Shown here: piece by piece, positions 3,369 through 57,292 of the stretch
How the letters are laid out: the number at the start of each line of letters is the position of its first letter
Numbering within the stretch: the stretch's first letter is position 1
Virus record (IMG/VR): IMGVR_UViG_3300043466_002831
Coordinates: 57,364 to 121,363 of that record
Length of the DNA stretch: 64,000 bases
Strand: one strand, 5' to 3'
From: a virus
Taxonomy: Duplodnaviria > Heunggongvirae > Uroviricota > Caudoviricetes
Notes under the pieces: generated by a model
Told to the model about the DNA's origin: nothing
The model's database searches: none
What the model saw: the letters and a program-made list of their open reading frames with translations, nothing else
Position numbers and translations under genes: made by a program

Positions 3369-3376
3369 TACATTTG
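3369..3376 (+). promoter_or_regulatory. -7 promoter box TACATTTG, 4 nt upstream of ATG 3381
   Basis: TAnnTTTG-N4-ATG. Confidence 0.5.
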
Positions 3377-3380
3377 TATT

Positions 3381-4529
3381 ATGGAGAAAATTGTCAACAC
3401 ATTAATCGACGAGGCAGTACAGAAAGTCGATACATATACTAATAATGGTTCAACTTGGCTCATTTTTACAGATGATAAAAGATGGGTTATTGAACTTACC
3501 AAAGATGGTACGTTATGGTATAACTACAATTTCTTTAATAGTTTATTTGCATATACCTCAATGGATGTAATTGAAAACCAACATTATATTACAAAGTGGG
3601 TTGAGAACAATGTCATCAATAAGAAAAAACCTGTCAAAAATGAGGTGAAAGACACTGAAGTGCGGAAGCGTCATTTGGTCCAACAGGTTGAAGACACCAT
3701 TCAAAATGGGGTGAAGCATACCTCTGGGGGTAGAAATTATGGTCCGTATAGAGTTGAAGACACCATACATAATGGGGTGAAGGAAACTATTGACCTTGAG
3801 ATGGATGACGAAGATGTTATTGAATACATGATTGAAACAGGTGTTAAAGAAACCATTGAATTGGTTAACTCTCAACTTGAGGAAGTTGAAGATACCATTC
3901 AAAATGGGGTGAAGAACACCCAACTTTGGTTAAATACCAGAGATACAGTAGTTGAAAGCGCTATTCAAAATGGGGTGAAAAATACCTACTCAGATAAAAT
4001 TCCTCATGAATATGATTGGACTGACCAATTTGATGTTAAAGAAGTTATTGAGACTGGTGTGAAACACACCGAAAAATCACTACAAATTGATGGTTCTTGT
4101 GTTATTGAAGATGTTATAAAGGAAGGAGTGAAACATACTGAGTATGGTGATTGGGAGGATGGTGATGAGAGATTGGATGATATCATTAAGAATGGGGTTA
4201 AACAAACCTGTGCTCAGATTCCCTCAATAGATGCTGTAGTAGAAAGAGTGGTTGAGGAAGGGATAAAAGAAACTAACATGGAAGAACATCATCGATTACG
4301 AGAAGTAGTTCAAACGGTTAAGAATGGTGTCAAAGAAACTCATGATGATGTTTATCCTCATACTGCCCGAATTGAAGGTGTGATTAAAAATGGAATTAAA
4401 GAAGTTCAACCATTACCAGCACAAGATGGCAACAGAGATTGGGGGATTTATTATTATAGAAAAGAAGATATAACCAAACCTCATACTCAATATGTGAATG
4501 ATGTAATTGAAAACGGAGAAAAATTTTAA
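3381..4529 (+). CDS. repeat protein with about 12 copies of an (I/V)xNGVKxT motif
   Basis: Peptide repeats such as EDTIQNGVKHT, IHNGVKET, IETGVKET, IQNGVKNT, IKEGVKHT, IKNGVKQT, VKNGVKET. The nucleotide repeat AATGGGGTGAA recurs. TACATTTG-N4-ATG promoter box directly upstream. Confidence 0.7.
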   Translation: MEKIVNTLIDEAVQKVDTYTNNGSTWLIFTDDKRWVIELTKDGTLWYNYNFFNSLFAYTSMDVIENQHYITKWVENNVINKKKPVKNEVKDTEVRKRHLVQQVEDTIQNGVKHTSGGRNYGPYRVEDTIHNGVKETIDLEMDDEDVIEYMIETGVKETIELVNSQLEEVEDTIQNGVKNTQLWLNTRDTVVESAIQNGVKNTYSDKIPHEYDWTDQFDVKEVIETGVKHTEKSLQIDGSCVIEDVIKEGVKHTEYGDWEDGDERLDDIIKNGVKQTCAQIPSIDAVVERVVEEGIKETNMEEHHRLREVVQTVKNGVKETHDDVYPHTARIEGVIKNGIKEVQPLPAQDGNRDWGIYYYRKEDITKPHTQYVNDVIENGEKF

Positions 4530-8532: not shown

Positions 8533-10752
8533 ATGAGATTATTAACTATTTTATTTTTGACCCTATTAACGTCAATAGGGTATACACAGTATTGCCCTGC
8601 ATTAGGTCCTGACCAATTACTTCCATGTGGTGTTGGTACAACAACATTAACCGCTGACCTATCCCAATGTGGTGGAGGTGGGGCAAACCCAAATCAAACA
8701 ACAAACTACGGTGTAACTAATATACCTTACGTTGCTCAAACAAACACAGGAACAAATTTGTTTATGACGGATGACTCCCAACAAGGGCCGTTCAGTATTG
8801 GATTTAACTTCTGTTTCTTTGGTACGACATACACTCAATTCTATGTTGGCTCTAACGGGTGGATTTCATTCGGAGCGGGACAACCAACAACCTTTACGTC
8901 TCAACCAATCCCAACAGGTAATGGTTTGGTACCTAAAAATTGTATCATGGGTCCTTGGCAAGATTGGCATCCTGGTCTTGGAGGTCAAATAAAATACCAA
9001 GTTCAAGGAGTTGCACCATGTAGAAAACTTGTAGTTAGTTGGATTAACATGCCGATGTTTTCATGTACAGGTAATCAAGGTACATTCCATATTGTAATAT
9101 ATGAATCGTCTAACTATATTGAGAATTATATTCAAAATAAACCTGCGTGTTTGCAGTGGCAAGGTGGGACTGCGACACAAGGAATTCATAATTCATTAGG
9201 TACTATTGGTATTGCGGTTGCTGGTAGAAACTCAACTGCGTGGACAGCAACAAACGATGCGTACAGATGGACACCAAGTGGTCCTGTAGTTACACCAACA
9301 TTAACTTGGTATCAGGTAGGTAATCCAACTCCAATAGGAACGGGACCAACAATTACGGTGACACCACCTGCGGCAGGAGCACAATATACTTGTAAATTTG
9401 TTTATCCTATTTGTAACGCGGGATGGTCAAATTGTAATTTAAGTACAGGTAACTTAGGACCCGATACGGTCTTTGTTGTGCCAGGTCCACCAAACTTACC
9501 ACCACCAATTGTTACGACATTCAACCCAAATTGTGAGGGTAGTTGTGATGGTGCAATCAATGTGGTTTCAAATGGAGGAACAGGTGTAAGTACCATTTCT
9601 TGGAATGGACAACCACCATTATTTACATTAACCAACTTATGTTCGGGAATTTATTCATTTACTATTGTGGATGCGGCAGGTTGTAATGTTTCAGGTACGG
9701 CAACTTTAGTTAATCCACCACCTGTAATCGCAAATCCAATCATTGCGTCAGATACGGTATGTTATCAGTCAAACAATATGGTATATACTACAACTGATTT
9801 AGGTGTGGGATATACATATCAATGGTCATCTGTTGGTAATATTGTGTCAGGTCAAGGGAATGATACGGTTGTTGTTGATTGGTCAGTATTACCTGCGGGG
9901 TTTATACCAAATGCTGTTGACATGATTGCCGTCAGTCCAAATGGATGTTTAAGTTTCCCCGTATCGTTTGACATCACAATATTCAATGTACTTCCTGTGA
10001 TAACACCTGTTGGACCATTCTGTTCTAACGATGAGTTCACTACGTTAAATGCAACACCAATAGGCGGAGTATTCAGTGGAACAGGGGTAATGGGTAATGA
10101 CTTTTATCCGTCTAATGCGGACACATTAAACAATATTATCACCTACACCTATACTCAAAGTGGATGTATCTTTGATACCACTACGGACATCATAGTATAT
10201 GAGCAACCAATCTTATCTCAAATCACTCCATACAACGAGTTCTTTGAAGTTTGTGACGGTGATTCAATACCAAGTATATATAGTGTAACTTCAACCGTTC
10301 TTGGTGGATATAATGAATGGACATTATTGGGTAACACAACTGAGTCGGATAACTTTAACATTGCTTGGGATGCATTTGGAACATTTGTATTATCAGTTGT
10401 AAGTTATGTTAATGGATGTGCATCACCACAACAACAAACAACAATCACAATTGCTCAATGTCCTCAAGAATTATTATACATTCCAAATTCATTTACACCT
10501 GATGGTAATGAGTTTAATAATACATGGAGACCCATAATTACTTCAGGGTTTGATAACACAGAATACCGAATGACGTTATATAATAGATGGGGTGAAATTA
10601 TATGGGAATCTCAAGACATCAACGAAGGATGGGATGGAACTTATAATAATAGTATAGTTCCTGTTGGTTCATATGTTTGGACGGTACAACTCAAGGCGTT
10701 AAAGACCGATTATAGACAGATATTGTCAGGTAGTTTGAATGTTTTAAAATAA
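8533..10752 (+). CDS. large secreted surface protein with T9SS type-B (gliding-motility-associated) C-terminal sorting domain
   Basis: Signal peptide MRLLTILFLTLLTSIGYTQ. C-terminus YIPNSFTPDGNEFNNTWRPI...YRMTLYNRWGEIIWESQDINEGWDG...GSYVWTV fits the T9SS type-B C-terminal domain pattern. Terminator follows. Confidence 0.7.
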   Translation: MRLLTILFLTLLTSIGYTQYCPALGPDQLLPCGVGTTTLTADLSQCGGGGANPNQTTNYGVTNIPYVAQTNTGTNLFMTDDSQQGPFSIGFNFCFFGTTYTQFYVGSNGWISFGAGQPTTFTSQPIPTGNGLVPKNCIMGPWQDWHPGLGGQIKYQVQGVAPCRKLVVSWINMPMFSCTGNQGTFHIVIYESSNYIENYIQNKPACLQWQGGTATQGIHNSLGTIGIAVAGRNSTAWTATNDAYRWTPSGPVVTPTLTWYQVGNPTPIGTGPTITVTPPAAGAQYTCKFVYPICNAGWSNCNLSTGNLGPDTVFVVPGPPNLPPPIVTTFNPNCEGSCDGAINVVSNGGTGVSTISWNGQPPLFTLTNLCSGIYSFTIVDAAGCNVSGTATLVNPPPVIANPIIASDTVCYQSNNMVYTTTDLGVGYTYQWSSVGNIVSGQGNDTVVVDWSVLPAGFIPNAVDMIAVSPNGCLSFPVSFDITIFNVLPVITPVGPFCSNDEFTTLNATPIGGVFSGTGVMGNDFYPSNADTLNNIITYTYTQSGCIFDTTTDIIVYEQPILSQITPYNEFFEVCDGDSIPSIYSVTSTVLGGYNEWTLLGNTTESDNFNIAWDAFGTFVLSVVSYVNGCASPQQQTTITIAQCPQELLYIPNSFTPDGNEFNNTWRPIITSGFDNTEYRMTLYNRWGEIIWESQDINEGWDGTYNNSIVPVGSYVWTVQLKALKTDYRQILSGSLNVLK

Positions 10753-13205: not shown

Positions 13206-13210
13206 CCAAA

Positions 13211-13237
13211 CCCTCACATAAAGTGGGGGTTTTTTTG
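13211..13237 (+). terminator. rho-independent terminator
   Basis: CCCTCAC-ATAAA-GTGGGGG followed by TTTTTTT. Confidence 0.75.
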
Positions 13238-13245
13238 TATATTTG
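13238..13245 (+). promoter_or_regulatory. Bacteroidota-type -7 promoter box TATATTTG, 4 nt upstream of ATG
   Basis: Matches the TAnnTTTG consensus; its spacing to the ATG implies a leaderless transcript. Confidence 0.55.
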
Positions 13246-13249
13246 TAGT

Positions 13250-13528
13250 ATGAAGAAACTACTTAAACACATAATCATACTTGCAATCGTTAGAAATGAG
13301 AGAAAGGCTCAGATGATTATCGATATCCTATACGACCAAACAACAACAATAACCAAAGACAATAAGGTTGTTGTGATGAAAGGTGAGACTAAAAATGTTA
13401 TGACACCACCGAACAACAAAAGACAAGAAGTTTTGGACGCCATTCAGTTCCTCAAGAATAAAGAAACAAAGACCAAAGCTGACCGAGAAAAGATTCAAAT
13501 GTTGGAAGTGGTTCTTAAAACCGTATAA
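13250..13528 (+). CDS. hypothetical small protein
   Basis: ATG at 13250 is preceded by TATATTTG-N4. The track start lies within the upstream terminator T-run. Confidence 0.5.
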   Translation: MKKLLKHIIILAIVRNERKAQMIIDILYDQTTTITKDNKVVVMKGETKNVMTPPNNKRQEVLDAIQFLKNKETKTKADREKIQMLEVVLKTV

Positions 13529-19842: not shown

Positions 19843-19856
19843 AAAAATATTTAAAA

Positions 19857-19882
19857 CCTCACTGTAATGGTGAGGTTTTTTT
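19857..19882 (+). terminator. rho-independent terminator
   Basis: CCTCAC-TGTAATG-GTGAGG perfect stem followed by TTTTTTT. Confidence 0.8.
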
Positions 19883-19883
19883 G

Positions 19884-19891
19884 TATATTTG
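19884..19891 (+). promoter_or_regulatory. -7 promoter box TATATTTG, 4 nt upstream of HNH ATG
   Basis: TAnnTTTG-N4-ATG. Confidence 0.55.
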
Positions 19892-19895
19892 TATT

Positions 19896-20804
19896 ATGTT
19901 AGTTCGCGAGTGTCCATCATGTAATAGTAATATCACATATTCTAATAAGGATAATTTTAATAGTGCCAATAAAAAAGGTAGTTTGTGTAAAAAGTGTGCC
20001 GAGGCAGAGAAACACGGTAGAAAAACTATTACGGACATAAATACATTTTTTAGACTCTATAGCGAAGAACGTAGAAGTGTGGAGGATATTGCAAAACACT
20101 TTGAAGTGTTACCTAGCACTGTTAAAAATTATGCCAACCATAATAAAATAAACAGACGAGATTACGATATTATTATGGAAAAAGAAGGTAAAAAAAGGTG
20201 TCATGGATGTAAATCTTTTTATGTCTTTGATGACTTTCATAAAAACAATAACACTAGAGATGGATTGGTAACCAAGTGTAAAAAATGTATGTGTGAGAAA
20301 TCAAATGATTATAAAGATAAAAATCTTGAACGAGTGTTAAAATCTACAAAGGAATATTCAAAACGAATGAAAGAAGAAAATCCTGAGACCTTTAAAAAGT
20401 GGAGAAAAACCGCTAAAAAAAATTACTTAAACAGTGAGATTGGTAAGTGGGATAGTAAATGTCGTTCTATATTAAAAAGAGCTTTATCTAAAATGGGTTT
20501 AACTAAAAATGATACCACTAACAAATTATTAGGGTATTCACCTAAACAACTTCTTGATTATTTAAAAACTTTTGATTTATATTATGAGGGTGGATATGAA
20601 GTTGACCACAAAGTACCTATTAGTTATTTTAAATTAGGAACTCACCCAAGTATCATTAATTCATTATGTAATTTACAATTAACCACCATTAAATATAATC
20701 AAAATAAAAGTAATAAGTTTGCCGACCCAATTACTATTGATTATTATGATAATATTAAACTACATATTAAAGAAGAATGTCTTAATAAACTTATTGTGAA
20801 ATAA
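19896..20804 (+). CDS. HNH homing endonuclease with two N-terminal Cys4 zinc-finger-like modules
   Basis: CPSCNS...CKKC and CHGCKS...CKKCMC; C-terminal HNH signature YEVDHKVPISYF...N. ATG at 19896 preceded by TATATTTG-N4. Flanked by a 75-bp direct repeat. Confidence 0.7.
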   Translation: MLVRECPSCNSNITYSNKDNFNSANKKGSLCKKCAEAEKHGRKTITDINTFFRLYSEERRSVEDIAKHFEVLPSTVKNYANHNKINRRDYDIIMEKEGKKRCHGCKSFYVFDDFHKNNNTRDGLVTKCKKCMCEKSNDYKDKNLERVLKSTKEYSKRMKEENPETFKKWRKTAKKNYLNSEIGKWDSKCRSILKRALSKMGLTKNDTTNKLLGYSPKQLLDYLKTFDLYYEGGYEVDHKVPISYFKLGTHPSIINSLCNLQLTTIKYNQNKSNKFADPITIDYYDNIKLHIKEECLNKLIVK

Positions 20805-20880: not shown

Positions 20881-21490
20881 CCCCCGCCTAATAGTCGGGT
20901 CCCCACCTAAACGAATAGACAGGTGAGATGTGATGTAGTGGATTATATGAGATTACATATAAGATAAGACCTTCGGTAAGAATTATATGTAATAAGATAT
21001 AATCCATAGAGTGTGGGTCAGGGATGGACTCGTAAGATAAGACCTACGGTCTATAATTAGAGAGTCCATTATTCTCCCACTTTCCTCCACTACGAGTTGT
21101 CTCCACTACGAAGGGACATAGATTGTCCACCTAACGAGGGGGTTTAATAACAAGTCGGTTCCCTCGTTGAAGGGGGATAAAATCCCTCTGAAACACTCCC
21201 TACGGTCGTTTCCCCGCCCTCTACACTTAGTGTTCCTTTTTTATCTGGAAATCGTATATAGTAAAAAAATGGTCCTCCTGATAGTGTCAGGGGGAAAAAA
21301 GTGGTCTTAATACTATCGTAATAAAGGAAATGGTGGTAGAAAGTGGGGGGAATTAGTACATAGGTGGGGAACCAAAAACCCGTCAAGGGATTATCCCCAA
21401 TGCAACGAGTCCCCTGACATTTTGACATTTCCAAATTTTTACCCCTAAAGTTATCAACAATCGACATTTATTTTCCCCCCTGACATAGTG
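20881..21490 (+). ncRNA. GC-enriched structured non-coding element (candidate structured RNA, intron-like or ribozyme-like; or replication-origin structure)
   Basis: Nested perfect hairpins: 20941-21004 (GATTATAT / TTACATATAA arms with a UUCG loop) and 21024-21069 (ATGGACTC / GAGTCCAT enclosing AGACC-UACG-GGTCT). Further helices AACGAGGG / CCCTCGTT and GGGGAT / ATCCC. No convincing ORF. Confidence 0.4.
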
Positions 21491-21554
21491 TCATGTGGAT
21501 AACTTAATTGTTAATAACTTTATTTTTATATGTTCCCCAACTATAATTAACGTC

Positions 21555-21797
21555 ATGAAGTATGTACTGACAGAAATAGATGACAGGATTAGAGTGACCA
21601 TCTCTAATGACGATAAAGAAATAGGTCTCCTTTATTTCGAGAAGGCTAAACTCAACTTTACAAATAAACCATTAAGCATGGGGTCATGGGCATGTGTCGA
21701 TGCCAAGATAGAAGATGATAGTATATTCCATGAAGGGTTCACCCCCAAACAAATGGTGGGGGAATGTCAGGACCTGATTAAAGCGGCGGGGTATTAA
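21555..21797 (+). CDS. hypothetical small protein (uncertain)
   Basis: ORF downstream of the structured non-coding region; MKYVLTEIDD is the more likely start than the track start 21495. Confidence 0.3.
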   Translation: MKYVLTEIDDRIRVTISNDDKEIGLLYFEKAKLNFTNKPLSMGSWACVDAKIEDDSIFHEGFTPKQMVGECQDLIKAAGY

Positions 21798-22262
21798 TTG
21801 TCCTTCTTAAAGAACATATTATATATCCCCACGACTAACCATCCCATGAATAGGTAAAACAAAATCTTTCTCATTAGAGTCTCTCTTTAATAAGTTTCTT
21901 AATATCATCCAAAGTGGTGACCTCTTTGTCCCCCAACATATCCTTAATAGAATTGTAAGCCCAAAGAACTGCGTAACCGATAACAACTGCTTTAATGAAT
22001 TTTTTCATGGTATATATATTTTCAACAAATATATGGAATAGTTGACACTATTCCAAATAAATTCAAACAATATTTCAATCCACCAAAGGGGCGGGGAAAA
22101 AAGATTAACCTCCTATAAAAAAATATAGGACGAGCTGCCTCTGATTAAGCTCCAAGGTATGTTCCACCTAGCCCTTCCTACTCCATCTTTCAGACAATAC
22201 AAAGGTACGGATTATATTTGACAACCCCAAACCTAAACACGAATATTTATTAATATATTTAA

Positions 22263-22700
22263 ATGACCATGACAGAAGAAGAACTATATGACAACTATGA
22301 ATTTAAGGTGACCAAGAGAGCCCTGATGAGAGAGTTTCCATTCATTAAGAATGTGTATGTGAAAGACCCCGCCACTATTGACCAATACAAGTCCTTCATC
22401 TTCTTAGATGCCGATATTAATCCCTATGAGTTCTCACATATGTATGGACTTAAGGTGGACAGGATAACAGACAAATACCTAAGACGAGGTGAACCTTATT
22501 GGGGACCATACCTTTCCCTGTTCATTACAGGTGGGGTTGATGATACATGGCCCATTAAGAAAGCCATTGGTGATTTGATTGATGGTATTCATAAGTCACC
22601 TGCCATACCACAAGAACTAAAGTTGGATAGGGAACTTGAGATATCATCTTACCATGCCAATCCTGATACTCTACCACGTGACATCATGTCATACAAATAA
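22263..22700 (+). CDS. hypothetical protein
   Basis: 145-aa ORF within the non-coding-rich hub. Confidence 0.5.
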   Translation: MTMTEEELYDNYEFKVTKRALMREFPFIKNVYVKDPATIDQYKSFIFLDADINPYEFSHMYGLKVDRITDKYLRRGEPYWGPYLSLFITGGVDDTWPIKKAIGDLIDGIHKSPAIPQELKLDRELEISSYHANPDTLPRDIMSYK

Positions 22701-22856
22701 AAGTTATTAACAATGGGAGGGGAGGGATAAAAGTTATTAACATGTCCCCCCTTTGGCATGGGGGCATACCCCCCTATGGGTACCCCCTCCCCCCCGTATC
22801 CCCCCTTACATACTGTCATATTGTCAGTTTAGGGGGGATAATCCCCTGTATAACGG

Positions 22857-23078: not shown

Positions 23079-23123
23079 GAAATAAAATTTTGGGAAAAAA
23101 ATGTCCCTTTTTTGACTATTTAT
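23079..23123 (+). repeat. 45-bp direct repeat copy 2
   Basis: GAAATAAAATTTTGGGAAAAAAATGTCCCTTTTTTGACTATTTAT, immediately upstream of the gene starting at 23129. Confidence 0.75.
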
Positions 23124-23128
23124 ATATT

Positions 23129-23428
23129 ATGGAAAAAGCGTTTGAGAAACTTCTTAGGAAATTGTTGTTAGAAAAGTATCCGATTTATTTGGATGTCCAT
23201 GTTTCCGAATCGGGAAAGTATACCCCTAATAAAAGAATTTGTTATGAGGTATTTCTTATTATTTTTGATGAATATTATGGAACATCTTGGAGTACAAAAC
23301 AAATTGATGAGGTTAAAGAATATGTTAATACTCTTGCAAAATATATGGATATAAATATTTGTGGGATTTATCATGAAGTTGTTAATGAGCAAGAATGGGA
23401 AGAAATGAAATTACCTATTAAAAATTAA
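23129..23428 (+). CDS. hypothetical protein
   Basis: ATG at 23129 (MEKAFEKLL...). The track start lies in the upstream 45-bp repeat. Terminator follows. Confidence 0.5.
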   Translation: MEKAFEKLLRKLLLEKYPIYLDVHVSESGKYTPNKRICYEVFLIIFDEYYGTSWSTKQIDEVKEYVNTLAKYMDINICGIYHEVVNEQEWEEMKLPIKN

Positions 23429-23430
23429 AC

Positions 23431-23455
23431 CCCCTCCCAACAGAGGGGTTTTTTT
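23431..23455 (+). terminator. rho-independent terminator
   Basis: CCCCTC-CCAACA-GAGGGG followed by TTTTTTT. Confidence 0.75.
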
Positions 23456-24639: not shown

Positions 24640-24666
24640 CCCCATCTTTTTTAGGTGGGGTTTTTT
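24640..24666 (+). terminator. rho-independent terminator
   Basis: CCCCATCT-TTTTT-AGGTGGGG followed by TTTTTT. Confidence 0.7.
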
Positions 24667-24669
24667 GTT

Positions 24670-24677
24670 TATCTTTG
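24670..24677 (+). promoter_or_regulatory. -7 promoter box TATCTTTG, 4 nt upstream of ATG 24682
   Basis: TAnnTTTG-N4-ATG, immediately after a terminator. Confidence 0.5.
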
Positions 24678-24681
24678 ATGT

Positions 24682-25014
24682 ATGATAGAAGATATAAAAG
24701 TAATTCACCTCAAAAGTAATGCTCAACAACTTGAAACATGGATTGCCATGTTGAATGGGGAAATTGTGGGACACATCTATATGGAACGTGAAGAAAAGGA
24801 AAAGATTAAGTTTTTGGATGCTTGGGTTCATGAGGAACATAGATTGAAAGGTGTATTTAGAAAGTTGTGGGACACAAGATGGGAGTATGTTAAAAACCGT
24901 TATGCTGGTTATACTGTATATGCTTGGTGTAAACCAGGTTCATTGCCATTACTTTTGGAAAAAGGGTTTAGTGAAGGTGAAACATGTACGTATGTTGAAA
25001 AAATTGTAGAGTAA
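24682..25014 (+). CDS. GNAT-family N-acetyltransferase-like protein
   Basis: HRLKGVFRKL resembles GNAT motif A. TATCTTTG-N4-ATG upstream. Confidence 0.45.
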   Translation: MIEDIKVIHLKSNAQQLETWIAMLNGEIVGHIYMEREEKEKIKFLDAWVHEEHRLKGVFRKLWDTRWEYVKNRYAGYTVYAWCKPGSLPLLLEKGFSEGETCTYVEKIVE

Positions 25015-25299: not shown

Positions 25300-25617
25300 A
25301 TGAAGTACCTCATCACCGAATCCAGGTTGGAAAACTTAATATACAAGTATCTTGAATCGAAAAGTCTTTATTTGTTAAGCACGGTTAATTCACGTCATTT
25401 TTTTCCTTCCCGTAAATCTATTGATGATGGTGAGTACCCGATTATATCCTACGATAATAAGAACAAAGATTGTTTTGTTAGTTCCACTTTTGTTGAGGAT
25501 GTATGTTCTTTGTTTTCCATTGACCCCGAATATTCTTTGAAGGTTATATCTGAATGGGTTGGAAATAAATTGGATGTTGAAATTGAATCATATAATTCCG
25601 ACTTTGGTGCCGACTAA
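25300..25617 (+). CDS. NTM family protein (array member 1)
   Basis: MKYLITESRLENLIYKYLES. Confidence 0.7.
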   Translation: MKYLITESRLENLIYKYLESKSLYLLSTVNSRHFFPSRKSIDDGEYPIISYDNKNKDCFVSSTFVEDVCSLFSIDPEYSLKVISEWVGNKLDVEIESYNSDFGAD

Positions 25618-25632
25618 CAAATATTTATTGAC

Positions 25633-25872
25633 ATGAAATATATTATTACCGAATCACAACATCAAAACATTATTCATGATTATTTGGAAAAGTATATTGA
25701 TTCGGATTGCGTTAGAATTAAAAAAACCCCTAACTATATTAGTGTTGATGTTGAAAGTCCAAGTTATTTTGAAGAACAGGGATTTGATAAATCTGATGTT
25801 GTCAGAATAAAAAACTTTCTGAAAAAGAACTCTTTTCAGTATGCGTTTGGAGAATACATTAAAAAAATATGA
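25633..25872 (+). CDS. NTM family protein (array member 2)
   Basis: MKYIITESQHQNIIHDYLEKY. Confidence 0.7.
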   Translation: MKYIITESQHQNIIHDYLEKYIDSDCVRIKKTPNYISVDVESPSYFEEQGFDKSDVVRIKNFLKKNSFQYAFGEYIKKI

Positions 25873-26534
25873 AGTATATCATCACCGAATCTCAGCGTCA
25901 AACATTATTGATGGAAACCGTATCTCCTCCGATTCGTAGAAGGTTGAGTTTTGAGAATATGAAAGATGAGATGGATTCCATTATTGAACATACTTTGAAT
26001 CCCTGTGATTTTGATAATGCTGGAACTTTTATTGAGGATGCCTGTGATATGTTTGTTTATATCTATCTTGAAGATTTGCAAGCATCATCTAAAGATAAGG
26101 ATTCTCTTTATTATTATGCCGTTGACGTATTTGGAAAATATCTTGTGGAAGTTTATAATGAGAGATGTGGTGGCAAAGATGGTTTAAACGAATCGGTAGG
26201 TGATTTAAGTAGGAAGGCCAAAATTTTAAAAAGATATACAGAAGATATGTTATCTGAGAAACCATGGTTTAATGGTTTGGATATTACCATATCTAACTAT
26301 CAAACATCACATAAAGACGAAAATGGTCGTCGTTATTTAACCACAATCCCCATCTTTACATTTAAGATTAATACAAGTGGTATTCCTAAAAGTATTTCAT
26401 ATAATGATGTTATTAAACTTGAAAATGAGGTTTCGGACATTGTTGTTCCGTTATTTACTTCTTTGTTCCCTTATGAAGATGAAGATGACAACTTGGATGC
26501 GGTTTGGGATACAAAATTTGATTTTCACTTATGA
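25869..26534 (+). CDS. NTM family protein (array member 3)
   Basis: MKYIITESQRQTLLMETVS; ATGA overlap with the upstream gene. Confidence 0.7.
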   Translation: MKYIITESQRQTLLMETVSPPIRRRLSFENMKDEMDSIIEHTLNPCDFDNAGTFIEDACDMFVYIYLEDLQASSKDKDSLYYYAVDVFGKYLVEVYNERCGGKDGLNESVGDLSRKAKILKRYTEDMLSEKPWFNGLDITISNYQTSHKDENGRRYLTTIPIFTFKINTSGIPKSISYNDVIKLENEVSDIVVPLFTSLFPYEDEDDNLDAVWDTKFDFHL

Positions 26535-26860
26535 AATATATAATTACAGAATCAAAATTGGACATGCTCATGACAAACTACATGGACAATTTTCTTGCCA
26601 GTAAAAAAGTATCCGATGGAGGTGATGTCCTTATTATCTATGATAATTTGGGTGAAGATTATGAATATGAGGAAGAAGTTTCTATTGATTATACGTATGA
26701 TGATTCTGAGATGTCCATTAGAATGGACTTAATTAACATGTTTACGTCTATGTTTTCTCGTGATATAGAACAAGCTAAAGAATTCATTAAGAATTGGTTT
26801 GAAAATAAATTTAACCTTGAGGTCGGGTATGTGGATACTTTCAAATCACCTAATTTTTAG
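26531..26860 (+). CDS. NTM family protein (array member 4)
   Basis: MKYIITESKLDMLMTNYMDNF; ATGA overlap. Confidence 0.7.
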   Translation: MKYIITESKLDMLMTNYMDNFLASKKVSDGGDVLIIYDNLGEDYEYEEEVSIDYTYDDSEMSIRMDLINMFTSMFSRDIEQAKEFIKNWFENKFNLEVGYVDTFKSPNF

Positions 26861-26868
26861 TAAAAACT

Positions 26869-27288
26869 ATGAAATATATTATAACAGAATCTAAATTGAA
26901 TTCCGCCATCTATGAATTTATAGACCAAGCGTTTGCATCAAAAGATGGGAATACGGAAATTAATACATTACCCGCATTAGATGAAAACGGTGAGGAGATT
27001 AATAATGCTTATGATTTTGTGAATGATGACTATTATAGTGACTCTGGTTCTGATTATCTTTTTGCTTGGACTGGAGAAAAGTATTACGAATCACTAACCC
27101 CTAGTTATATAACAGGAAGTGAATTCGAAAGACTTGCATCACAATCACCCCTTGTTGAAATTTATGACAAAGATATCTTGAATAAACTTAATGGTTATTT
27201 CGGAGATGCGTGGAAGCCAGTATTTAAACAATGGTTTAAAGATAAAACGGGAATGGATTATAAAACAATATATGAAGTACCTAATTAG
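26869..27288 (+). CDS. NTM family protein (array member 5)
   Basis: MKYIITESKLNSAIYEFIDQAF; C-terminal GYFGDAWKPVFKQWFKDKTG. Confidence 0.7.
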   Translation: MKYIITESKLNSAIYEFIDQAFASKDGNTEINTLPALDENGEEINNAYDFVNDDYYSDSGSDYLFAWTGEKYYESLTPSYITGSEFERLASQSPLVEIYDKDILNKLNGYFGDAWKPVFKQWFKDKTGMDYKTIYEVPN

Positions 27289-27577
27289 TGAATCAAAAAT
27301 AGAATCTGTTATCCGAAAATATTTGGATGATAATTATTATCCTGACTATGGTTGGTTAGAACCTGAACAGTATAAAGAAGAATATGAAAAATGGGATGAA
27401 GTTTATTTTGACATTGATGACCATATTCGATATAAGTATGTTTCAGGAAAATTAACTGTTGGTGAATCCCCTGACCTTGATGGGTATTTTGGTGATGTGT
27501 GGAGACCTGTATTTCTTTCATGGTTTGAAGACCATACGGGATTAAAAGTTTATGAATATAAAGTACTTGACGAATGA
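27272..27577 (+). CDS. NTM family protein (array member 6)
   Basis: MKYLISESKIESVIRKYLDD from the internal ATG at 27272; C-terminal GYFGDVWRPVFLSWFEDHTG is paralogous to member 5. Confidence 0.65.
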   Translation: MKYLISESKIESVIRKYLDDNYYPDYGWLEPEQYKEEYEKWDEVYFDIDDHIRYKYVSGKLTVGESPDLDGYFGDVWRPVFLSWFEDHTGLKVYEYKVLDE

Positions 27578-27867
27578 AATATCTAATTAAAGAATCACAA
27601 ATTAAAAGGTTTATATGGGATTATTTTAATTCAGAGGATTATGATATTTCCGAAGATGATAATGATATTTTTCTTCTTGATGATTATGGTAATTTTGATT
27701 GGAATTATACTTTTGATAATAGACGATTGTTGGTTGCAAATGACATAATTGTTTCAGTTGAAAGTATGTTTAGTATTTCATATGACGATGCATTGGAATA
27801 TGCTGGTCAGTGGTTTGAAGAAAAGTATGGTTATATTGTTGAGGAAATTCTTAATTGGGATTTGTAA
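27574..27867 (+). CDS. NTM family protein (array member 7)
   Basis: MKYLIKESQIKRFIWDYFNSEDY; ATGA overlap. Confidence 0.7.
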   Translation: MKYLIKESQIKRFIWDYFNSEDYDISEDDNDIFLLDDYGNFDWNYTFDNRRLLVANDIIVSVESMFSISYDDALEYAGQWFEEKYGYIVEEILNWDL

Positions 27868-28869
27868 TTAAAAAAACTCTATTGTATTTTTAACGTCCAC
27901 ACAATATTCTTCGAACAAAAATCCATTTTCATTATATACCTCCATTTTTTTTATGTTGTTTGGATAACCGTATAAATTCCATATTCCGTAACCATCAAAA
28001 CTTTGGAATAGTTCCGTTTTTGTTTCATCATTAAATGTTATTATGATTTGTCTTGTTGTTGGTTCAGATTTTGTATTATAACTATAGATGAAAATTTCGT
28101 CAGGATTTTTTTGATTTAAATAAAATTTGGTATAACACCCTTTATATTTTTGGTCGTAATAAACTCTGGTGTGTTTTGAATTCCATAATGTGTCTGAAAA
28201 TTCTTGTACAAAATTATGGTGAACAATTATTTCATTTTGGTTAACTTTTTTTAAGTTCTCACACATAAATTCTTCCATAAGAAGAAAATTCCGATTGTTA
28301 TAGTTTGTTTGAAGAAAGTCAATATAGTCCTGTTCGCATGTTATGTTCCAGAAGTTATCTAAAAAATAATCTATTTCACACAAAAAATAATGTACGTTCA
28401 TAAAGGTTGGTTCGTTCATAAAGAAAACCCCTTTCTTTCCGTTTGATATACAGTCCTGATTTAATTCCTTGATTTTATTTGTTGTGTGATTTCCGAGAAT
28501 TGCGTCATATTCCATTTTATAAAAATGTGTATAACCTAAATCTTTTGCAATTTTCACAGAACGAAATAAACTAATTAATACCGATAGACCGTGTGGTTGA
28601 GTATGTGGAAATATATTTGATACTCTAAAAAATTCGTAAAGGTTATAATATGAAACATCTTGGTAATTGTCATACTTTTCTTTAAATAATTGATTCCTTT
28701 TATCGTAGAAAAAATAGTTAACCTTATCTTGAATTGTTTTTGATATGTTGGTATTTGACATTAATAATATGTCATCGCCAATATTTCTTGATGAATCTAT
28801 AAAATTACTTAAACGTGTTTCATCTGCCTCATCATTTATAAATGCATCTAGGATTAGTATTGTTTTCAT
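27868..28869 (-). CDS. hypothetical protein (possible nucleotide-sugar transferase-like fold; not established)
   Basis: 333-aa minus ORF, the only minus gene in a long plus block. N-terminus MKTILILDAFIND... Confidence 0.5.
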   Translation of the reverse strand: MKTILILDAFINDEADETRLSNFIDSSRNIGDDILLMSNTNISKTIQDKVNYFFYDKRNQLFKEKYDNYQDVSYYNLYEFFRVSNIFPHTQPHGLSVLISLFRSVKIAKDLGYTHFYKMEYDAILGNHTTNKIKELNQDCISNGKKGVFFMNEPTFMNVHYFLCEIDYFLDNFWNITCEQDYIDFLQTNYNNRNFLLMEEFMCENLKKVNQNEIIVHHNFVQEFSDTLWNSKHTRVYYDQKYKGCYTKFYLNQKNPDEIFIYSYNTKSEPTTRQIIITFNDETKTELFQSFDGYGIWNLYGYPNNIKKMEVYNENGFLFEEYCVDVKNTIEFF

Positions 28870-28944
28870 GATTAAATAATAGACAACCTTTTATATTTTT
28901 AAATGTTGAAGTATGAATTTATTCATCTTTTTAACCAGAACGCG

Positions 28945-29022
28945 CCGACGAAAACCGACTTCGTCGGATATTTTCCCTCATTTTTTCTCGTTTTTGGACC
29001 GCCGTTTCCGACCTTCGGTCGG
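28945..29022 (+). other. pair of GC-rich hairpins in a divergent intergenic region
   Basis: CCGACGA-AAACCGACT-TCGTCGG and CCGACC-TTCG-GGTCGG (UUCG-type loop) between minus gene 27868-28869 and plus gene 29097. Confidence 0.5.
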
Positions 29023-29096
29023 TTCGAAATCCTTTGTTATATGGTCATCTCGTTGGTGTCATCTAAACAAATGGTCGGGTCATTATATTTATTATT

Positions 29097-30020
29097 ATGA
29101 AGTACATTATCACTGAATCACAGTATAAGAATTTAATTGAATCTGATGACCGCTTAACCAAAATGGTTAATAGGTATTTGGACATGACATTCGGAAACAT
29201 GGTTCGAGTTGATACAAAGTTTGGTTCAGGTTATAAGTTTGACGGAGATGACCAATATCAACTTAATGTTTTCAAAAATGATTCAGGTAAATTGCAATTG
29301 GCAATTTCATCATCATTTATTAAACACCTTACCTCAATGTTTGATGTTTATAAATCTGAGGCGAGTGAACTTATTGCAGAATATTGTGAAGATGTTTTGG
29401 GTATGGAATTTGATTTTATACGAATTTGGCCAATTAAAATAACTGAATCAGATTTAACTCGAATAATTGAGAGAATCATACAAGAACAAGTTGCAACTGA
29501 ACCAATTAATTTTGATAAAGTATATAAATCCACTTATCCTAGTATGTTTAGACAAGTTTGTATGAAATATGCAAACGGAGATTATGACTTGGCATCTGAA
29601 TATTGCCAACTTGGATATTTGAGAGTTAACGATAAACTCCACACATTTAAGGGTGAAGGTAGTTTGGAGGGTTGGATTCGTCGTGTGATTACAACAACAA
29701 TCATCAATGAGTTCAGAGCTAAGAAAAGAAAAATCGACACAACAAGTGATTTTGATTTTGAAAGAAACGATGTTTCAGATGAACCTGAAGAAAAATATGA
29801 AGATATTGAGTTTATGGGTAAGTATACCGTGGCAGATATTAAAAACGCCATTGATTCTCTCCCTAAAGGTTATCAATTTGTTTTCTACCAATATTTCTAT
29901 AAAGACAAATCTCATAAGGAAATTGCTGACGCTTTGGGAATTGACGAAGGTACATCAAGGTCCCAATTGTCAAAAGCTAAAAAGAAGATTAAGGATTACT
30001 TGGAAAGTTTAAAAAGATAA
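29097..30020 (+). CDS. ECF-type sigma-70 family factor fused to an NTM-family N-terminal region
   Basis: N-terminus MKYIITESQYKNLIESDD. The C-terminal half has a region-2-like segment (LEGWIRRVITTTIINEFRAKKRK) and a region-4 helix-turn-helix (LPKGYQFVFYQYFYKDKSHKEIADALGIDEGTSRSQLSKAKKKIKDYL). Confidence 0.7.
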   Translation: MKYIITESQYKNLIESDDRLTKMVNRYLDMTFGNMVRVDTKFGSGYKFDGDDQYQLNVFKNDSGKLQLAISSSFIKHLTSMFDVYKSEASELIAEYCEDVLGMEFDFIRIWPIKITESDLTRIIERIIQEQVATEPINFDKVYKSTYPSMFRQVCMKYANGDYDLASEYCQLGYLRVNDKLHTFKGEGSLEGWIRRVITTTIINEFRAKKRKIDTTSDFDFERNDVSDEPEEKYEDIEFMGKYTVADIKNAIDSLPKGYQFVFYQYFYKDKSHKEIADALGIDEGTSRSQLSKAKKKIKDYLESLKR

Positions 30021-30030
30021 AATAATTTAA

Positions 30031-30055
30031 CCTATCTCACAAGGATGGGTTTTTT
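30031..30055 (+). terminator. rho-independent terminator
   Basis: CCTATC-TCACAAG-GATGGG followed by TTTTTT. Confidence 0.7.
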
Positions 30056-30084
30056 ATTTGATTTTATTTTCTTATGATTATTGT

Positions 30085-30498
30085 ATGAGTGATTTTAAAA
30101 TTTCTGACATTCCCCCTACAATTACAACAAATAATAGTGCCAGGTACGAAGTATTTGATAATTCCATGTTGGTAATGCCAAAAGTTCTTGATGTGTTAAT
30201 TAAAAAAACACATCCTGAGATTATTAGTGTGAGTATTAAAGATGTGGATTCTTCCTTAACGTATAATCCAATGGATTTTAGTGCTATTGAGAGATTTCGA
30301 CTACATATTTCGGTGTCATTTAAACAAGGTATTCAACCTAAAGGAGTGATGGAATATTATTCAGAATCAATCCAAGACTTGTTTAAATATACTTACCCCG
30401 AACATGACTTCGTTAAATTTAATGTGATTGAAATGAATATCCCAAACCCACCATCAAATCGAGAACTTTTTGGTAGATTGTTCTTACCTGAACAATAA
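30085..30498 (+). CDS. hypothetical protein
   Basis: In-frame ATG at 30085; the track start is TTG inside the terminator T-run. Confidence 0.45.
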   Translation: MSDFKISDIPPTITTNNSARYEVFDNSMLVMPKVLDVLIKKTHPEIISVSIKDVDSSLTYNPMDFSAIERFRLHISVSFKQGIQPKGVMEYYSESIQDLFKYTYPEHDFVKFNVIEMNIPNPPSNRELFGRLFLPEQ

Positions 30499-32490: not shown

Positions 32491-32516
32491 CCCCACTCAC
32501 AATGTGGGGTTTTTTA
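32491..32516 (+). terminator. rho-independent terminator
   Basis: CCCCAC-TCACAAT-GTGGGG followed by TTTTTT. Confidence 0.8.
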
Positions 32517-32549
32517 ATTTCAATATATTTATAATAAACGAAATTAAAA

Positions 32550-34324: not shown

Positions 34325-34349
34325 CCCCATCTAATCGGTGGGGTTTTTT
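34325..34349 (+). terminator. rho-independent terminator
   Basis: CCCCATC-TAATC-GGTGGGG followed by TTTTTT. Confidence 0.75.
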
Positions 34350-34370
34350 GTTTGTTAAGTATTTATTAAT

Positions 34371-42339: not shown

Positions 42340-42364
42340 CCCCACTCAAAAGGTGGGGTTTTTT
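42340..42364 (+). terminator. rho-independent terminator
   Basis: CCCCAC-TCAAAAG-GTGGGG followed by TTTTTT. Confidence 0.8.
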
Positions 42365-42387
42365 GTTTATTAATGTATTTATAGAAT

Positions 42388-43065
42388 ATGGCAAGAGTAG
42401 TAAGACTTACGGAACAAGAATTAACTGGATTACTTCAGAACATTATAAATATGGCTTTTAATCCAAGTAAGTCGTCATCAACAAGTAGTACAAGCTCTAC
42501 GGATTCAGGTGACGATATTGAGGGTACTCCAAAAGACACTTCAATAGGTAAGGTATCTGCCAAAGGACAAGCGTTATTAAATAATCCAATTTTTAAGAAA
42601 AAATTAAAAGAAATATCAAACGCAATTCATATTGATGAAAACTCAATCATTAAATTAATGAAACATGAATCAGGTCTTAATCCTGAAATTAAAAATAGTA
42701 TTGGGTGTGTTGGGTTGATTCAGTTTTGTCCTGGTGGAGGAATGCCAAAAACAATTAATGGTAAGTCATACACTTTGGATGAATTAAGATACGACTTGGA
42801 AGCTCAGATGGATGCGATTAAAGAATTTTGGACTAAAGGATATAACAATGGTAAAATAAAACAACCTGCAGACTTGTATCTTTATAATTTCTTCCCTGTT
42901 GCTGCAGGAAAACCTGATGATTTTGTATTACAAGCTAAAGGGTTATCGGCATCAACTGTGGCTAAGGCTAATCCAGGATTTAATAAAAAATTGGGTAAAC
43001 CTGCTTCATCACCATTAACTGTTGGTGATATGAAACAATATTACCGACAAACAGGGATGGCATAA
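42388..43065 (+). CDS. lytic transglycosylase (SLT domain) with NTM-family N-terminus
   Basis: MARVVRLTEQELTGLLQNIINMA, then an STSSTSSTDS linker, then HESGLNPEIKNSIGCVGLIQF (SLT catalytic-region pattern ES...N...S..GA.GLMQ). Confidence 0.6.
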   Translation: MARVVRLTEQELTGLLQNIINMAFNPSKSSSTSSTSSTDSGDDIEGTPKDTSIGKVSAKGQALLNNPIFKKKLKEISNAIHIDENSIIKLMKHESGLNPEIKNSIGCVGLIQFCPGGGMPKTINGKSYTLDELRYDLEAQMDAIKEFWTKGYNNGKIKQPADLYLYNFFPVAAGKPDDFVLQAKGLSASTVAKANPGFNKKLGKPASSPLTVGDMKQYYRQTGMA

Positions 43066-56842: not shown

Positions 56843-56850
56843 TATCTTTG
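56843..56850 (+). promoter_or_regulatory. -7 promoter box TATCTTTG, 4 nt upstream of ATG 56855
   Basis: TAnnTTTG-N4-ATG; supports the revised start of the signal-peptide gene. Confidence 0.5.
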
Positions 56851-56854
56851 TTAT

Positions 56855-57292
56855 ATGAAAACGATACTCACAACAATATTACTTCTTTTATCATTGACTG
56901 TCAAGTCCCAACAGTGTGATGTTTTATATGTCCCAAGTCAAAAAAGTTTGGTTGCTTCATACAATTATAAACAAATTGGTTTATATGTTGGAGGGTATTA
57001 TGTGACGACTTTTCCACAACCATTTATCTACACAACACCTTTGTCTATTGTAAACCGTGTTGGATTAACGTTTGTAAATAAAAACAATACGTTTAGTGTT
57101 ATGGGTGGTGCATATCTTAAAACTTACTTTGACCGTGTAGAGATGACACCTGATATTTGGGTTAAAATTTACCCGATTAGAATGTTGACTGGAGATAAAT
57201 CCAATCTTGATTTTGCTGTAGGCGTAAATTATATGAACGGATTTAGACTAGGAATTGGATTATCTATTCCATATTGGAGTATTTATAAGTAA
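56855..57292 (+). CDS. small secreted, possibly outer-membrane beta-barrel-like protein
   Basis: Signal peptide MKTILTTILLLLSLTVKSQQ from the ATG at 56855 (TATCTTTG-N4 upstream); alternating-hydrophobic, aromatic-rich body. Confidence 0.45.
   Translation: MKTILTTILLLLSLTVKSQQCDVLYVPSQKSLVASYNYKQIGLYVGGYYVTTFPQPFIYTTPLSIVNRVGLTFVNKNNTFSVMGGAYLKTYFDRVEMTPDIWVKIYPIRMLTGDKSNLDFAVGVNYMNGFRLGIGLSIPYWSIYK

Follow-up and report, generated by a model that had tools for sequence, protein, structure and literature searches.

A leader-tagged ECF-type sigma factor gene in an uncultured Bacteroidota phage and its fusion to a small phage protein module

Why should a phage sigma factor begin with the same short peptide as many other, unrelated proteins of the same phage, and what could this peptide do for it? 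The question is raised by a 307-codon open reading frame (ORF) located in a 64,000-nucleotide stretch of the IMG/VR virus record IMGVR_UViG_3300043466_002831 (Caudoviricetes; positions 57,364 to 121,363 of the record), referred to below as the window. The original prediction for this ORF, made from the DNA letters, was a phage-encoded extracytoplasmic function (ECF)-type sigma factor sharing an N-terminal motif, here called the leader, with many genes of the element, and this description is supported by the analyses presented here. As a sigma factor, the protein is an ordinary phage ECF sigma; the leader and the additional module attached to it are not. The best overall explanation, to which an even chance is given, combines four elements: a real ECF sigma factor, a fusion mediated by the leader, a portable leader used for docking, and a sigma gene that is itself a product of the promoter class marked by the box TATTTAT.

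The sigma factor domain

The C-terminal part of the ORF product was recognized by the Pfam models Sigma70_r2 (PF04542; 31.4 bits, cut-off 24) and Sigma70_r4_2 (PF08281; 48.5 bits, cut-off 25.7), and the NCBIfam model TIGR02937 (sigma70-ECF) was matched over its full length by residues 140-302 (95 bits, cut-off 42.9). Furthermore, the ORF was assigned to PHROG 1740, 'RNA polymerase sigma factor' (5e-22), and sequence-level matches to solved ECF sigma factors (SigE/SigH; PDB 9m9d, 5zx2) were obtained with E-values between 7e-9 and 1e-7. Pfam models for sigma regions 1.1, 1.2 and 3 gave no match to the ORF at E≤1. The model searches thus agree with the original prediction, in which sigma regions 2 and 4 had been placed in the C-terminal ~160 amino acids (aa) and features of sigma region 1 had been reported missing from the N-terminal part. 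The opposite outcome considered at that time, namely no sigma match or a better fit of the helix-turn-helix (HTH) segment to another regulator family, was not observed, because HTH_10, GerE and Phage_antitermQ scored 13-14 bits, far below their cut-offs of 23-26, whereas the sigma models passed theirs.

The presence of sigma-2 and sigma-4 domains, the absence of regions 1.1 and 3, the short linker and the score above the cut-off of a curated family model are the characteristics of group 4, and, judged from its sequence, the C-terminal 165 aa portion is a bona fide group-4 (ECF-type) sigma factor. It belongs to no named ECF subgroup, as none of the equivalog or subfamily ECF models of NCBIfam reached its cut-off. 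From its family membership, the sigma part would be expected to bind the host core RNA polymerase (RNAP) and to redirect it to phage promoters. No anti-sigma family of Pfam was detected among the window ORFs, and none was recognized beside the sigma gene.

Among deposited phages, only distantly related sigma factors (<30% identity) were found, most of them in records of crAss-like phages and further uncultured phages of the gut. Cellular ECF sigma factors of Bacteroidota (Mucilaginibacter, Coprobacter; P0108, P0114) share the sigma-2 and sigma-4 domains with the phage protein at 34-39% identity. However, these cellular homologues start with their usual first helix ('..LIxGCxxGD..') and lack the leader. 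The sigma factors of phages phiEco32 and 7-11 are comparable in that they are small two-domain proteins of lytic phages retargeting the host core RNAP, as is predicted here, and carry the same broad PHROG annotation (phrog_1740). In contrast to the present protein, they have no shared N-terminal leader and no fused module, and the host is here a member of the Bacteroidota.

The leader and its distribution

Scanning of the six-frame translation of the window with a leader profile resulted in 21 hits of at least 10 bits, of which 20 were located exactly at ORF starts and one inside the sigma ORF; with the next score at 4.7 bits, this placement is far beyond chance. The leaders of the window occur in two flavours, MKYIITESQ-Phi-xx-Phi-I and M(K/R)x-Phi-Phi-(R/K)LTE(S/A)DLxRI-Phi-xxVIsEQ (flavour B), accompanied by a third, shorter one (MNLKESIRRIIREE / MNLREDIERIQEVMG). 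In 12 viral sigma orthologues, being 42-76% identical to the reference P0010, leader positions 1, 2, 5, 7, 9 and 15 show a conservation of at least 90% or no variation. The codons of ten tabulated MKY-type copies vary synonymously (AAA/AAG 5:5, TAT/TAC 6:4, five different codons at position 4), and selection therefore acts on the leader peptide and not on the DNA. A purely DNA-level repeat, such as a promoter or a recombination site, was rejected for this reason, and also because operon-internal genes without a promoter keep the peptide.

To describe the breadth of the leader, a 30-position profile built from the window's five flavour-B leaders was searched against 1.84 billion proteins (E≤0.001), and 6,139 representative proteins or families were matched. 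Among the best 150 of these 6,139, the consensus reads MKK(I/V)(I/V)RLTESDL(V/T)R(I/L)VKRVI(S/N)EQ, conservation ends at leader position 23 and is followed by polar and Pro-rich sequence, 140 of 147 matches begin at residue 1, and two or more copies were found in 32 of the 150 proteins. Internal and C-terminal copies also occur among the profile matches. The hydrophobic moment of the leader is 1.5-1.6. The exact back-translated MKYIITESQ was detected in at least 111 IMG/VR stretches, on contigs of 5 to 321 kb, versus a single occurrence in 596 Gb of bacterial and archaeal genomes, and ~1 Mb of fetched loci yielded 333 non-redundant leader proteins with a median length of 119 aa. The leader is a portable, virus-only element conserved at the peptide level: 9-23 residues long and nearly invariant at many positions, it heads thousands of unrelated proteins of uncultured freshwater phages. 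The initial idea of a portable rather than sigma-specific tag is strongly supported by the unrelated cargo and the 6,139 representative families. A literature search for the motif strings returned no description of the leader, only chance string matches in unrelated papers.

The proteins carrying the leader, referred to as its cargo, are mostly ORFans. Recognizable cargo is rare and unrelated, comprising the sigma factor, an SLT protein, a lysozyme with LysM, two HNH/DUF723 homing endonucleases and a WYL-like protein, while some of the ORFans feature HExxH motifs, leucine-rich repeats, zinc ribbons (53-aa zinc-ribbon proteins) or C-terminal membrane anchors. Leader genes account for about a quarter of the ORFs in a non-structural region. 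One of them (42388-43065) encodes a 225-aa protein in which a Ser/Thr-rich linker connects a flavour-B leader (MARVVRLTEQELTGLLQNII) with an SLT lytic transglycosylase domain (PF01464; matching PHROG baseplate-hub and lytic-tail families); by analogy, cargo of this type would be expected if a virion protein is ejected. The HExxH proteins with weak Peptidase_M48 similarity (955-2250 in the window; L044 2517-3545; L107 454-909) may represent leader-tagged metallopeptidases, as far as their motifs indicate. A Sec or type IX secretion system (T9SS) signal was considered and rejected, because the leader is a charged, amphipathic peptide from which the genuine signal peptides of the window differ (ORF at 8533, MRLLTILFLTLL), and because T9SS signals are C-terminal.

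Variants of the third N-terminal motif, namely MNLKESIR(R/K)(I/V)(I/L)(R/K)EE, MNLREDIERIQEVMG and MRDLIRRILKEQ, are common in related loci, and the motif looks like a shortened leader helix. In the window, ORFs with this motif were observed behind TATTTAT at 10806, 13538(-) (start at 14038), 18136, 7210, 54533 and 49917. The ORF listed from 10770 truly starts at 10806, as indicated by the TATTTAT box at 10795.

Domain architecture and origin of the fusion protein

The N-terminal ~140 aa had been treated as one block in the original prediction. They do begin with the leader, but are divided into a leader (residues 1-15), a module (16-114), a second leader (115-131) and a linker (132-136); the separate 100-aa domain, the internal leader copy and the existence of module-less sigma factors in closely related strains had been missed. 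In the AlphaFold2 (AF2) model of the full-length protein, five segments were distinguished (mean predicted local distance difference test score, pLDDT, of 78). Leader copy 1 is built from a short hydrophobic strand followed by an N-capped helix. Copy 2, the sole internal leader copy in the window, is flanked by low-confidence linkers, and both leader helices are of low confidence and unpacked against the cargo.

For the module, a compact alpha/beta fold was modelled, consisting of a helix, a four-stranded meander, two helices and a strand, with confident prediction over residues 17-111. No fold match was found in the PDB (best E 0.07) and no family in Pfam or PHROG. In BFVD, about ten uncharacterized proteins of 'uncultured Caudovirales phage' were retrieved (E 3e-8 to 5e-3, TM 0.56-0.72). 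Located 1.2 kb upstream of the sigma ORF is a tandem array of leader-bearing small genes (Table 1), to which the module was aligned by hhalign with a probability of 97.5% (E 5e-12). From this similarity, the array genes are regarded as paralogues of the sigma-fused module, and the module belongs to a phage-only family of small alpha/beta proteins.

A single cluster at 90% identity holds sigma forms of 187, 199 and 307 aa. The leader is placed directly on the sigma factor in the closest homologues of 185-187 aa (MKYIITESQYKLLTE-TINFEEAYK...), the 199-aa form starts with MGRTIRLTESDLTRIIERIIHEQ, to which leader copy 2 of the window is equal, and three further 307-aa variants carry point substitutions. 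Residues 1 to ~120 also exist as stand-alone proteins of 124 aa (P0163, 95% identical; P0164, 80%) that end in ...WPIKITESDLVKVN before the stop codon, and the module was furthermore found N-terminal to unrelated C-termini (P0035, 299 aa; P0055/P0072/P0078, ~456-466 aa; P0079, 256 aa). A three-way DNA alignment of the window with L009 and L012 revealed that the window equals the stand-alone module gene up to ...AAAATAACTGAATC and the 199-aa sigma gene from TTAACTGAATCAGATTT... onward. The crossover is thereby placed within 16 nt of leader-coding sequence, and the 307-aa protein is therefore a natural in-frame fusion. As deduced from the alignment, it was formed from a ~120-aa small-protein gene and the 199-aa sigma gene, both starting with the leader and joined by recombination in it, and the leader serves as a splice point for domain shuffling.

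The exact 307-aa protein was recorded on 29 contigs (JGI, NCBI, ENA, Logan; 53 index blocks), the longest of 137,752 bp, and the window is matched at 99.6-100% identity by eight independent loci. An assembly chimera was rejected on these grounds. The module is an optional add-on, because strains 96-97% identical here carry the 187-, 199- or 307-aa form, and contigs with the 199-aa form tend to stop just upstream of the sigma gene, as expected at a polymorphic site. With three co-existing architectures and a joint mapped to 16 nt, the sigma locus represents the clearest natural experiment on the leader.

An accidental fusion, neutral or slightly harmful, in which the N-module does nothing for the sigma factor, would agree with the module being absent from such closely related strains, with the sufficiency of a 16-nt microhomology and with the frequent breaking of contigs exactly at the junction, which indicates population heterogeneity. 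This explanation is nevertheless regarded as rather unlikely. Within its cluster, no other member has been recorded as widely as the exact 307-aa protein, and the same module has been joined to at least three other C-terminal partners. Moreover, other sigma orthologues (L163, L168, L175, L182) carry independent and different insertions between leader and sigma, so that N-terminal add-ons recur, suggesting that they are tolerated or useful.

A weak leader-like stretch (TESIITEDKYDNAIRQVV; 3.8 bits) was also noticed at 57703-57760, inside the ORF 57292-58296, which encodes a 334-aa protein and has its own TATTTAT box. It may represent a decayed fusion joint.

Promoter boxes and terminators

Two types of boxes are enriched immediately upstream of start codons in the window. 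TATTTAT-N4-5-ATG (class A) occurs at 18 sites versus 1.9 expected, a number reached by none of 100 shuffles, and TAnnTTTG-N4-ATG (class G), containing the host-type -7 box, at 11 sites versus 2.1 expected. The sigma-A -7 box TAnnTTTG of Flavobacterium extends from -12 to -5, and only 5.5% of the host mRNAs are leaderless (PMC9723704). Given the spacing between box and ATG in both classes, the phage mRNAs should start at the A of the ATG, so that many of them, in contrast to those of Flavobacterium, would be leaderless. Examples of TAnnTTTG exactly 4 nt before the ATG are located at 904-918(-), 3369-3383, 13238-13252, 19884-19898, 24670-24684, 56843-56857 and 63836-63850(-). No -35 partner of TATTTAT was found, only a T-rich tract.

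The leader is tied exclusively to genes behind the non-host TATTTAT box and never to those behind TAnnTTTG. In the window, ten leader genes were preceded by TATTTAT and none by TAnnTTTG, compared with nine and twelve, respectively, of the other genes (p=0.004). Across all loci, which were chosen for containing the leader, it was present on 121 of 244 ORFs behind TATTTAT versus 0 of 70 behind TAnnTTTG (p=4e-18). The upstream regions of MKYIITESQ genes contained TATTTAT in 44 of 76 distinct cases and TAnnTTTG in none, the rest being mostly operon-internal. In the fetched loci, TATTTAT outnumbers host-type boxes 264 to 95. A requirement of the leader for leaderless translation was considered and dismissed, as TAnnTTTG-N4-ATG genes are equally leaderless and never carry it.

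The sigma gene itself lies behind a TATTTAT box (Table 1), which was also detected upstream of the 199-aa sigma form (L012), the L125 orthologue and 20 of 38 distinct orthologue N-termini, whereas TAnnTTTG was absent upstream of all 38 orthologues examined. An ECF-type AAC/CGT promoter was not found upstream of the sigma gene, the box there being TATTTAT without a CGT element. A second promoter class distinct from TAnnTTTG, as proposed in the original prediction, therefore exists, but it cannot simply be assigned to the sigma factor as its middle or late class, because the sigma gene and its orthologues are themselves located behind TATTTAT.

A terminator scan of positions 28700-30200 revealed three sites versus 0.5 expected. 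The hairpin upstream of the sigma gene probably insulates it from read-through, and, with a further hairpin (30029-30051) following directly after the stop codon, the gene is a monocistronic unit between terminators. The divergent intergenic region upstream of sigma includes a stretch of ~50% G+C (28925-29070), containing two hairpins, CCGACGAA..TTCGTCGG and CCGACCTTCGGTCGG, the second of which is followed by the T-loop-like GGTTCGAAATCC. A similar GC-rich stretch is present in the relative L125, where it was translated by the gene caller as the start of a 333-aa ORF. A structured RNA in this stretch was not supported, since no Rfam family and no tRNA were found and the folding z-score was only -2.05.

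A recurring cassette of the phage consists of a terminator hairpin (CCCCAYC..GGTGGGG) with a T-run, immediately followed by promoter box and ATG. Examples are located at 13210-13237, 19855-19883, 24640-24669, 32495-32520, 34325-34350, 42340-42365 and 62900-62930(-). These conserved joints flanking gene units are reminiscent of the promoter early stem-loop (PeSL) cassettes of T4-type phages, in which short conserved gene-boundary sequences serve as recombination joints for the shuffling of small genes between phages. Terminator hairpin, promoter box and leader codons are likewise found at gene boundaries here. In contrast to PeSL cassettes, the joint is here located inside the coding sequence, leading to in-frame fusions, and selection acts on the peptide.

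Possible roles of the leader and the sigma factor

The leader is tentatively interpreted as a docking helix, portable and amphipathic, through which the phage proteins of one promoter-defined class would reach a common partner; the chance of this is judged to be somewhat below even. TATTTAT-class proteins, the sigma factor included, would then be directed to a putative shared partner, and the helix would work physically like the capsid-targeting sequences (CTS) of T4 or the encapsulation peptides of microcompartments. Since the leaders share sequence, they would also act as recombination joints shuffling modules. The build of the leader (a strand and an N-capped amphipathic helix, then a linker), its unpacked position on the cargo, its independence of the cargo and its occurrence also between modules or at C-termini are in line with such a helix.

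Regarding the promoters read by the sigma factor, the reading preferred, at just under an even chance, is that its own gene belongs to the TATTTAT class and that the protein activates a later class located beyond the window, while TATTTAT is read by something already present. A factor already present would thus allow the sigma factor to be made, which in turn would turn on the later promoters. In the general scheme for phiEco32-type phages, expression is started by the host RNAP. The later-class reading avoids the bootstrapping problem of how a first sigma molecule is obtained, and it fits the missing -35 partner of TATTTAT despite a strong sigma-4 domain. The absence of ~23 large leader contigs from the 79 sigma-family loci, among the matches listed, also agrees with it as weak evidence.

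The leader, as a peptide shared by thousands of unrelated virus proteins and as the site through which a further domain was inserted, points to a protein-tagging system not described so far; known systems provide analogues of it. The T4 CTS (MKTYQEFIAE), carried by internal proteins and Alt, is likewise a portable N-terminal peptide of 10-20 aa on unrelated, fast-evolving small proteins, and the T4 peptide has a hydrophobic-x-Glu protease site at its end. The phage leader differs from it in being conserved for ~14 residues past the Glu, in heading thousands of families and in having internal copies; its packaging and cleavage are putative. Encapsulation peptides of microcompartments (for example the PduP N-terminus, MNTSELETLIRTILSEQL) are amphipathic helices of ~18 aa with a poorly conserved linker and are found at N- or C-termini or between domains. 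The leader resembles them as an amphipathic helix with a variable linker and a strikingly similar hydrophobic pattern (L..ii..vI.EQ), but it is viral and not cellular, and the resemblance is physico-chemical only, that is, an analogy. Pfam analysis of 94 window ORFs revealed none of the microcompartment shell families (BMC-H/T/P). Should the leader be a targeting signal, foreign proteins could be loaded into Bacteroidota phages with it as a ready-made tag, and it would give access to what hundreds of ORFans do; should it be an expression or degradation signal, it would reveal a further level of temporal control in the phages of this phylum, in which transcription and translation signals are atypical.

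Several points weigh against the overall explanation. TATTTAT is a putative promoter, deduced from position and enrichment, and the loci of the large association test were selected for the leader. The docking partner is likewise putative, and homing endonucleases and tail-anchored membrane proteins among the cargo fit a generic role in expression or stability at least as well. In sigma factors carrying the leader directly, it stands where cellular ECF sigma-2 domains have their first helix and might be structural rather than free, and the low pLDDT of the leader helices may reflect thin alignments in the modelling. A tblastn search of 50,697 deposited phage genomes gave no match to the flavour-B leader. 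Furthermore, the later-class reading is argued from the bootstrapping problem and not from data; a late promoter motif was not detected, as the window is without recognizable virion genes.

One alternative to docking, which takes up the packaging and early delivery suggested in the original prediction, is that the leader is a T4-like capsid-targeting sequence ending in a prohead-protease site, by which proteins are loaded into the procapsid. The protease would cut after Glu7 and Glu117, thereby releasing the module and a ~190-aa sigma factor, and the latter would be injected with the DNA and start TATTTAT transcription, including that of its own gene. Prohead proteases of T4, phiKZ and SPN3US cut after Glu, and T4 CTS peptides of 10-20 aa are functional on foreign cargo. 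The Phi-x-E element (I-T-E, L-T-E or L-K-E), with its nearly invariant Glu, is the most conserved core of every leader flavour and resembles the sites cut by these proteases; I-T-E7 and I-T-E117 are present in the sigma leaders. Internal or C-terminal copies are common (32/150), in-frame fusions are tolerated, which would be expected of modules that are separated by cleavage, and peptidoglycan hydrolases (SLT, lysozyme), HExxH proteins and hydrophobic cargo are similar to known ejection proteins. Moreover, a pre-made sigma factor would solve the bootstrapping problem of a gene that, likewise in orthologues, has only a TATTTAT box and lies between terminators, and leader contigs of up to 321 kb stand for big capsids. 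However, conservation continues past the Glu, the helix behind it being as conserved as the part before, unlike in the T4 CTS. The cargo, about a quarter of the ORFs of a non-structural region, includes homing endonucleases, 53-aa zinc-ribbon proteins and tail-anchored membrane proteins, and the window ORFs revealed neither a T4-type prohead protease nor capsid or scaffold genes, the only protease of interest being one of the ClpP family 9 kb outside. In addition, ~23 leader contigs of at least 100 kb were absent from the 79 sigma-family loci among the matches listed, which is pattern-limited and weak evidence. Capsid targeting is considered unlikely, but is still a serious rival of docking. 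A wider version of it is less probable again, namely a phage-wide sorting code that loads a promoter-defined class, including the sigma factor, into the capsid or a compartment, where a Glu-specific protease would cut the fusions and the injected sigma factor would ignite TATTTAT transcription. If true, this would be the first case of a sigma factor delivered by virions, and, with more than 6,000 cargo families, no larger system for capsid targeting (or encapsulation) would be known. Just as unlikely as simple capsid targeting is a leader acting as an expression or stability element (an elongation ramp, ClpXP-type protection or exposure, or timed degradation) that sets the abundance or half-life of the sigma factor. 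Selfish homing endonucleases carry the leader as if it were part of an expression cassette, its coupling to one box and to leaderless starts is tight, its start is strictly Met1-Lys2, and the genome also encodes a ClpP-family protease not far away. N-terminal extension destabilizes the Streptomyces sigma-R', and some N-terminal motifs are recognized by ClpX. Against such an element, class-G genes are equally leaderless yet without the leader, operon-internal genes with overlapping stop and start codons keep it without a promoter, and synonymous sites vary freely. The conservation of a 15-23-aa amphipathic helix with a linker, together with internal and C-terminal copies, is also unlike a purely initiation-linked role.

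Compared with the later-class reading of the sigma factor, it is doubtful, though still plausible, that TATTTAT is the recognition element of the sigma factor itself, with the leader genes as its regulon, the leader co-inherited with the promoter cassette and an auto-amplifying loop of the kind formed by many ECF sigma factors. TATTTAT is unlike the host -7 box, lacking its defining G, predominates over host-type boxes in the fetched loci and precedes the sigma orthologues. The ECF-like sigma factor of phiEco32 provides a precedent, as it reads a single AT-rich 9-mer (TAATGTATA) without a -35 element, in a style similar to TATTTAT. On the other hand, no route to the first sigma molecule is visible for a gene that is insulated by terminators and whose 38 examined orthologues are without a host-type box upstream. 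TATTTAT has neither a -35 partner, although the sigma-4 domain is strong, nor a CGT-type ECF -10 element, and large contigs with leader and TATTTAT had no detected sigma relative among the matches listed.

Genomic context and host

The sigma gene is real, and its owner is a large (at least 137 kb), lytic Bacteroidota phage known only from metagenomes. The window has a G+C content of 32.6%, and no tRNA was found in it. Pfam analysis of its 94 larger ORFs revealed phage-accessory functions, among them thymidylate synthase, T4-type RNA ligase, cyclophilin, glycosyltransferase, GNAT, GIY-YIG endonuclease, SLT and Band 7, and no capsid, portal or terminase genes. One step past each window end, ClpP, HNH, a GH19 endolysin, LamG and T9SS-tailed proteins were found and likewise no recognizable capsid, portal or terminase. 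Near relatives were not detected among the 50,697 deposited phage genomes, either by megablast with 12 kb or by tblastn with a 901-aa neighbour.

A 739-aa PKD-like protein encoded at 8533-10752 contains a CHU_C domain of type IX secretion, and this domain, together with the enriched TAnnTTTG boxes, indicates a Bacteroidota host. Beyond the left window end, a 637-aa protein with Cohesin and Por_Secre_tail domains was observed (L209 18094-20007). The phage appears to use the host T9SS for secreted proteins with T9SS C-terminal domains. The ClpP-family protease gene (PF00574, 226 aa) is located at L207 861-1541, ~9 kb past the right window end, and has a TAnnTTTG box 22 nt upstream; its product might act as a prohead protease or be linked to the leader as a proteolytic partner.

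Table 1. Positions of the sigma gene, its parts and the surrounding elements in the window
Feature	Position	Strand	Evidence
Complete ORF, leader-module-leader-ECF sigma, 307 aa, ATG start, TAA stop	29097..30020	+	ORF translation
Leader copy 1, residues 1-15, MKYIITESQYKNLIE	29097..29141	+	Profile 19.4 bits; AF2 helix 7-15, pLDDT 55-60
N-module, residues 16-114	29142..29438	+	AF2 pLDDT 81-91 in full-length model; alone mean 81.8, predicted TM-score (pTM) 0.73
Leader copy 2, residues 115-131, ITESDLTRIIERIIQEQ, module/sigma junction	29439..29489	+	Profile 15.9 bits; AF2 helix 117-131, pLDDT ~50
Crossover microhomology, 16 nt, TAACTGAATCAGATTT	29440..29455	+	Three-way DNA alignment of window, L009 and L012
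Sigma region 2 (sigma-2 domain), residues 151-211	29547..29729	+	PF04542; AF2 helices 139-207, pLDDT 72-88
Acidic disordered sigma-2/sigma-4 linker, residues 208-244 (37 aa)	29718..29828	+	AF2 pLDDT <50 over 223-239; no Sigma70_r3
Sigma region 4 (HTH, sigma-4 domain), residues 248-298	29838..29990	+	PF08281; AF2 pLDDT 95-98
TATTTAT box, 4 nt before the sigma ATG, implying a (near-)leaderless mRNA	29086..29092	+	Enrichment, position
Terminator-like GC-rich hairpin CCGACGAA..TTCGTCGG, both strands, ~130 nt upstream of the sigma start	28945..28967	.	Terminator scan
Intrinsic-terminator-like hairpin and T-run, directly after the stop codon	30029..30057	+	Terminator scan
Tandem array of eight leader-bearing small genes (79-221 aa)	25300-27867		Several overlapping stop/start codons

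Two further observations were made at a distance from the sigma gene. A stretch of ~375 nt (23079-23454) is 98% identical to the otherwise unrelated IMG/VR loci L019, L087 and L097, with which the flanking DNA is not shared; on sequence comparison, this suggests a recently exchanged cassette. Furthermore, the near-palindromic AAAGTTATTAACAAT occurs three times in intergenic positions beside G-rich tracts at ~21100-22740 (upstream of 21144(-), 21555 and 22742), where it is a possible operator or third regulatory signal.

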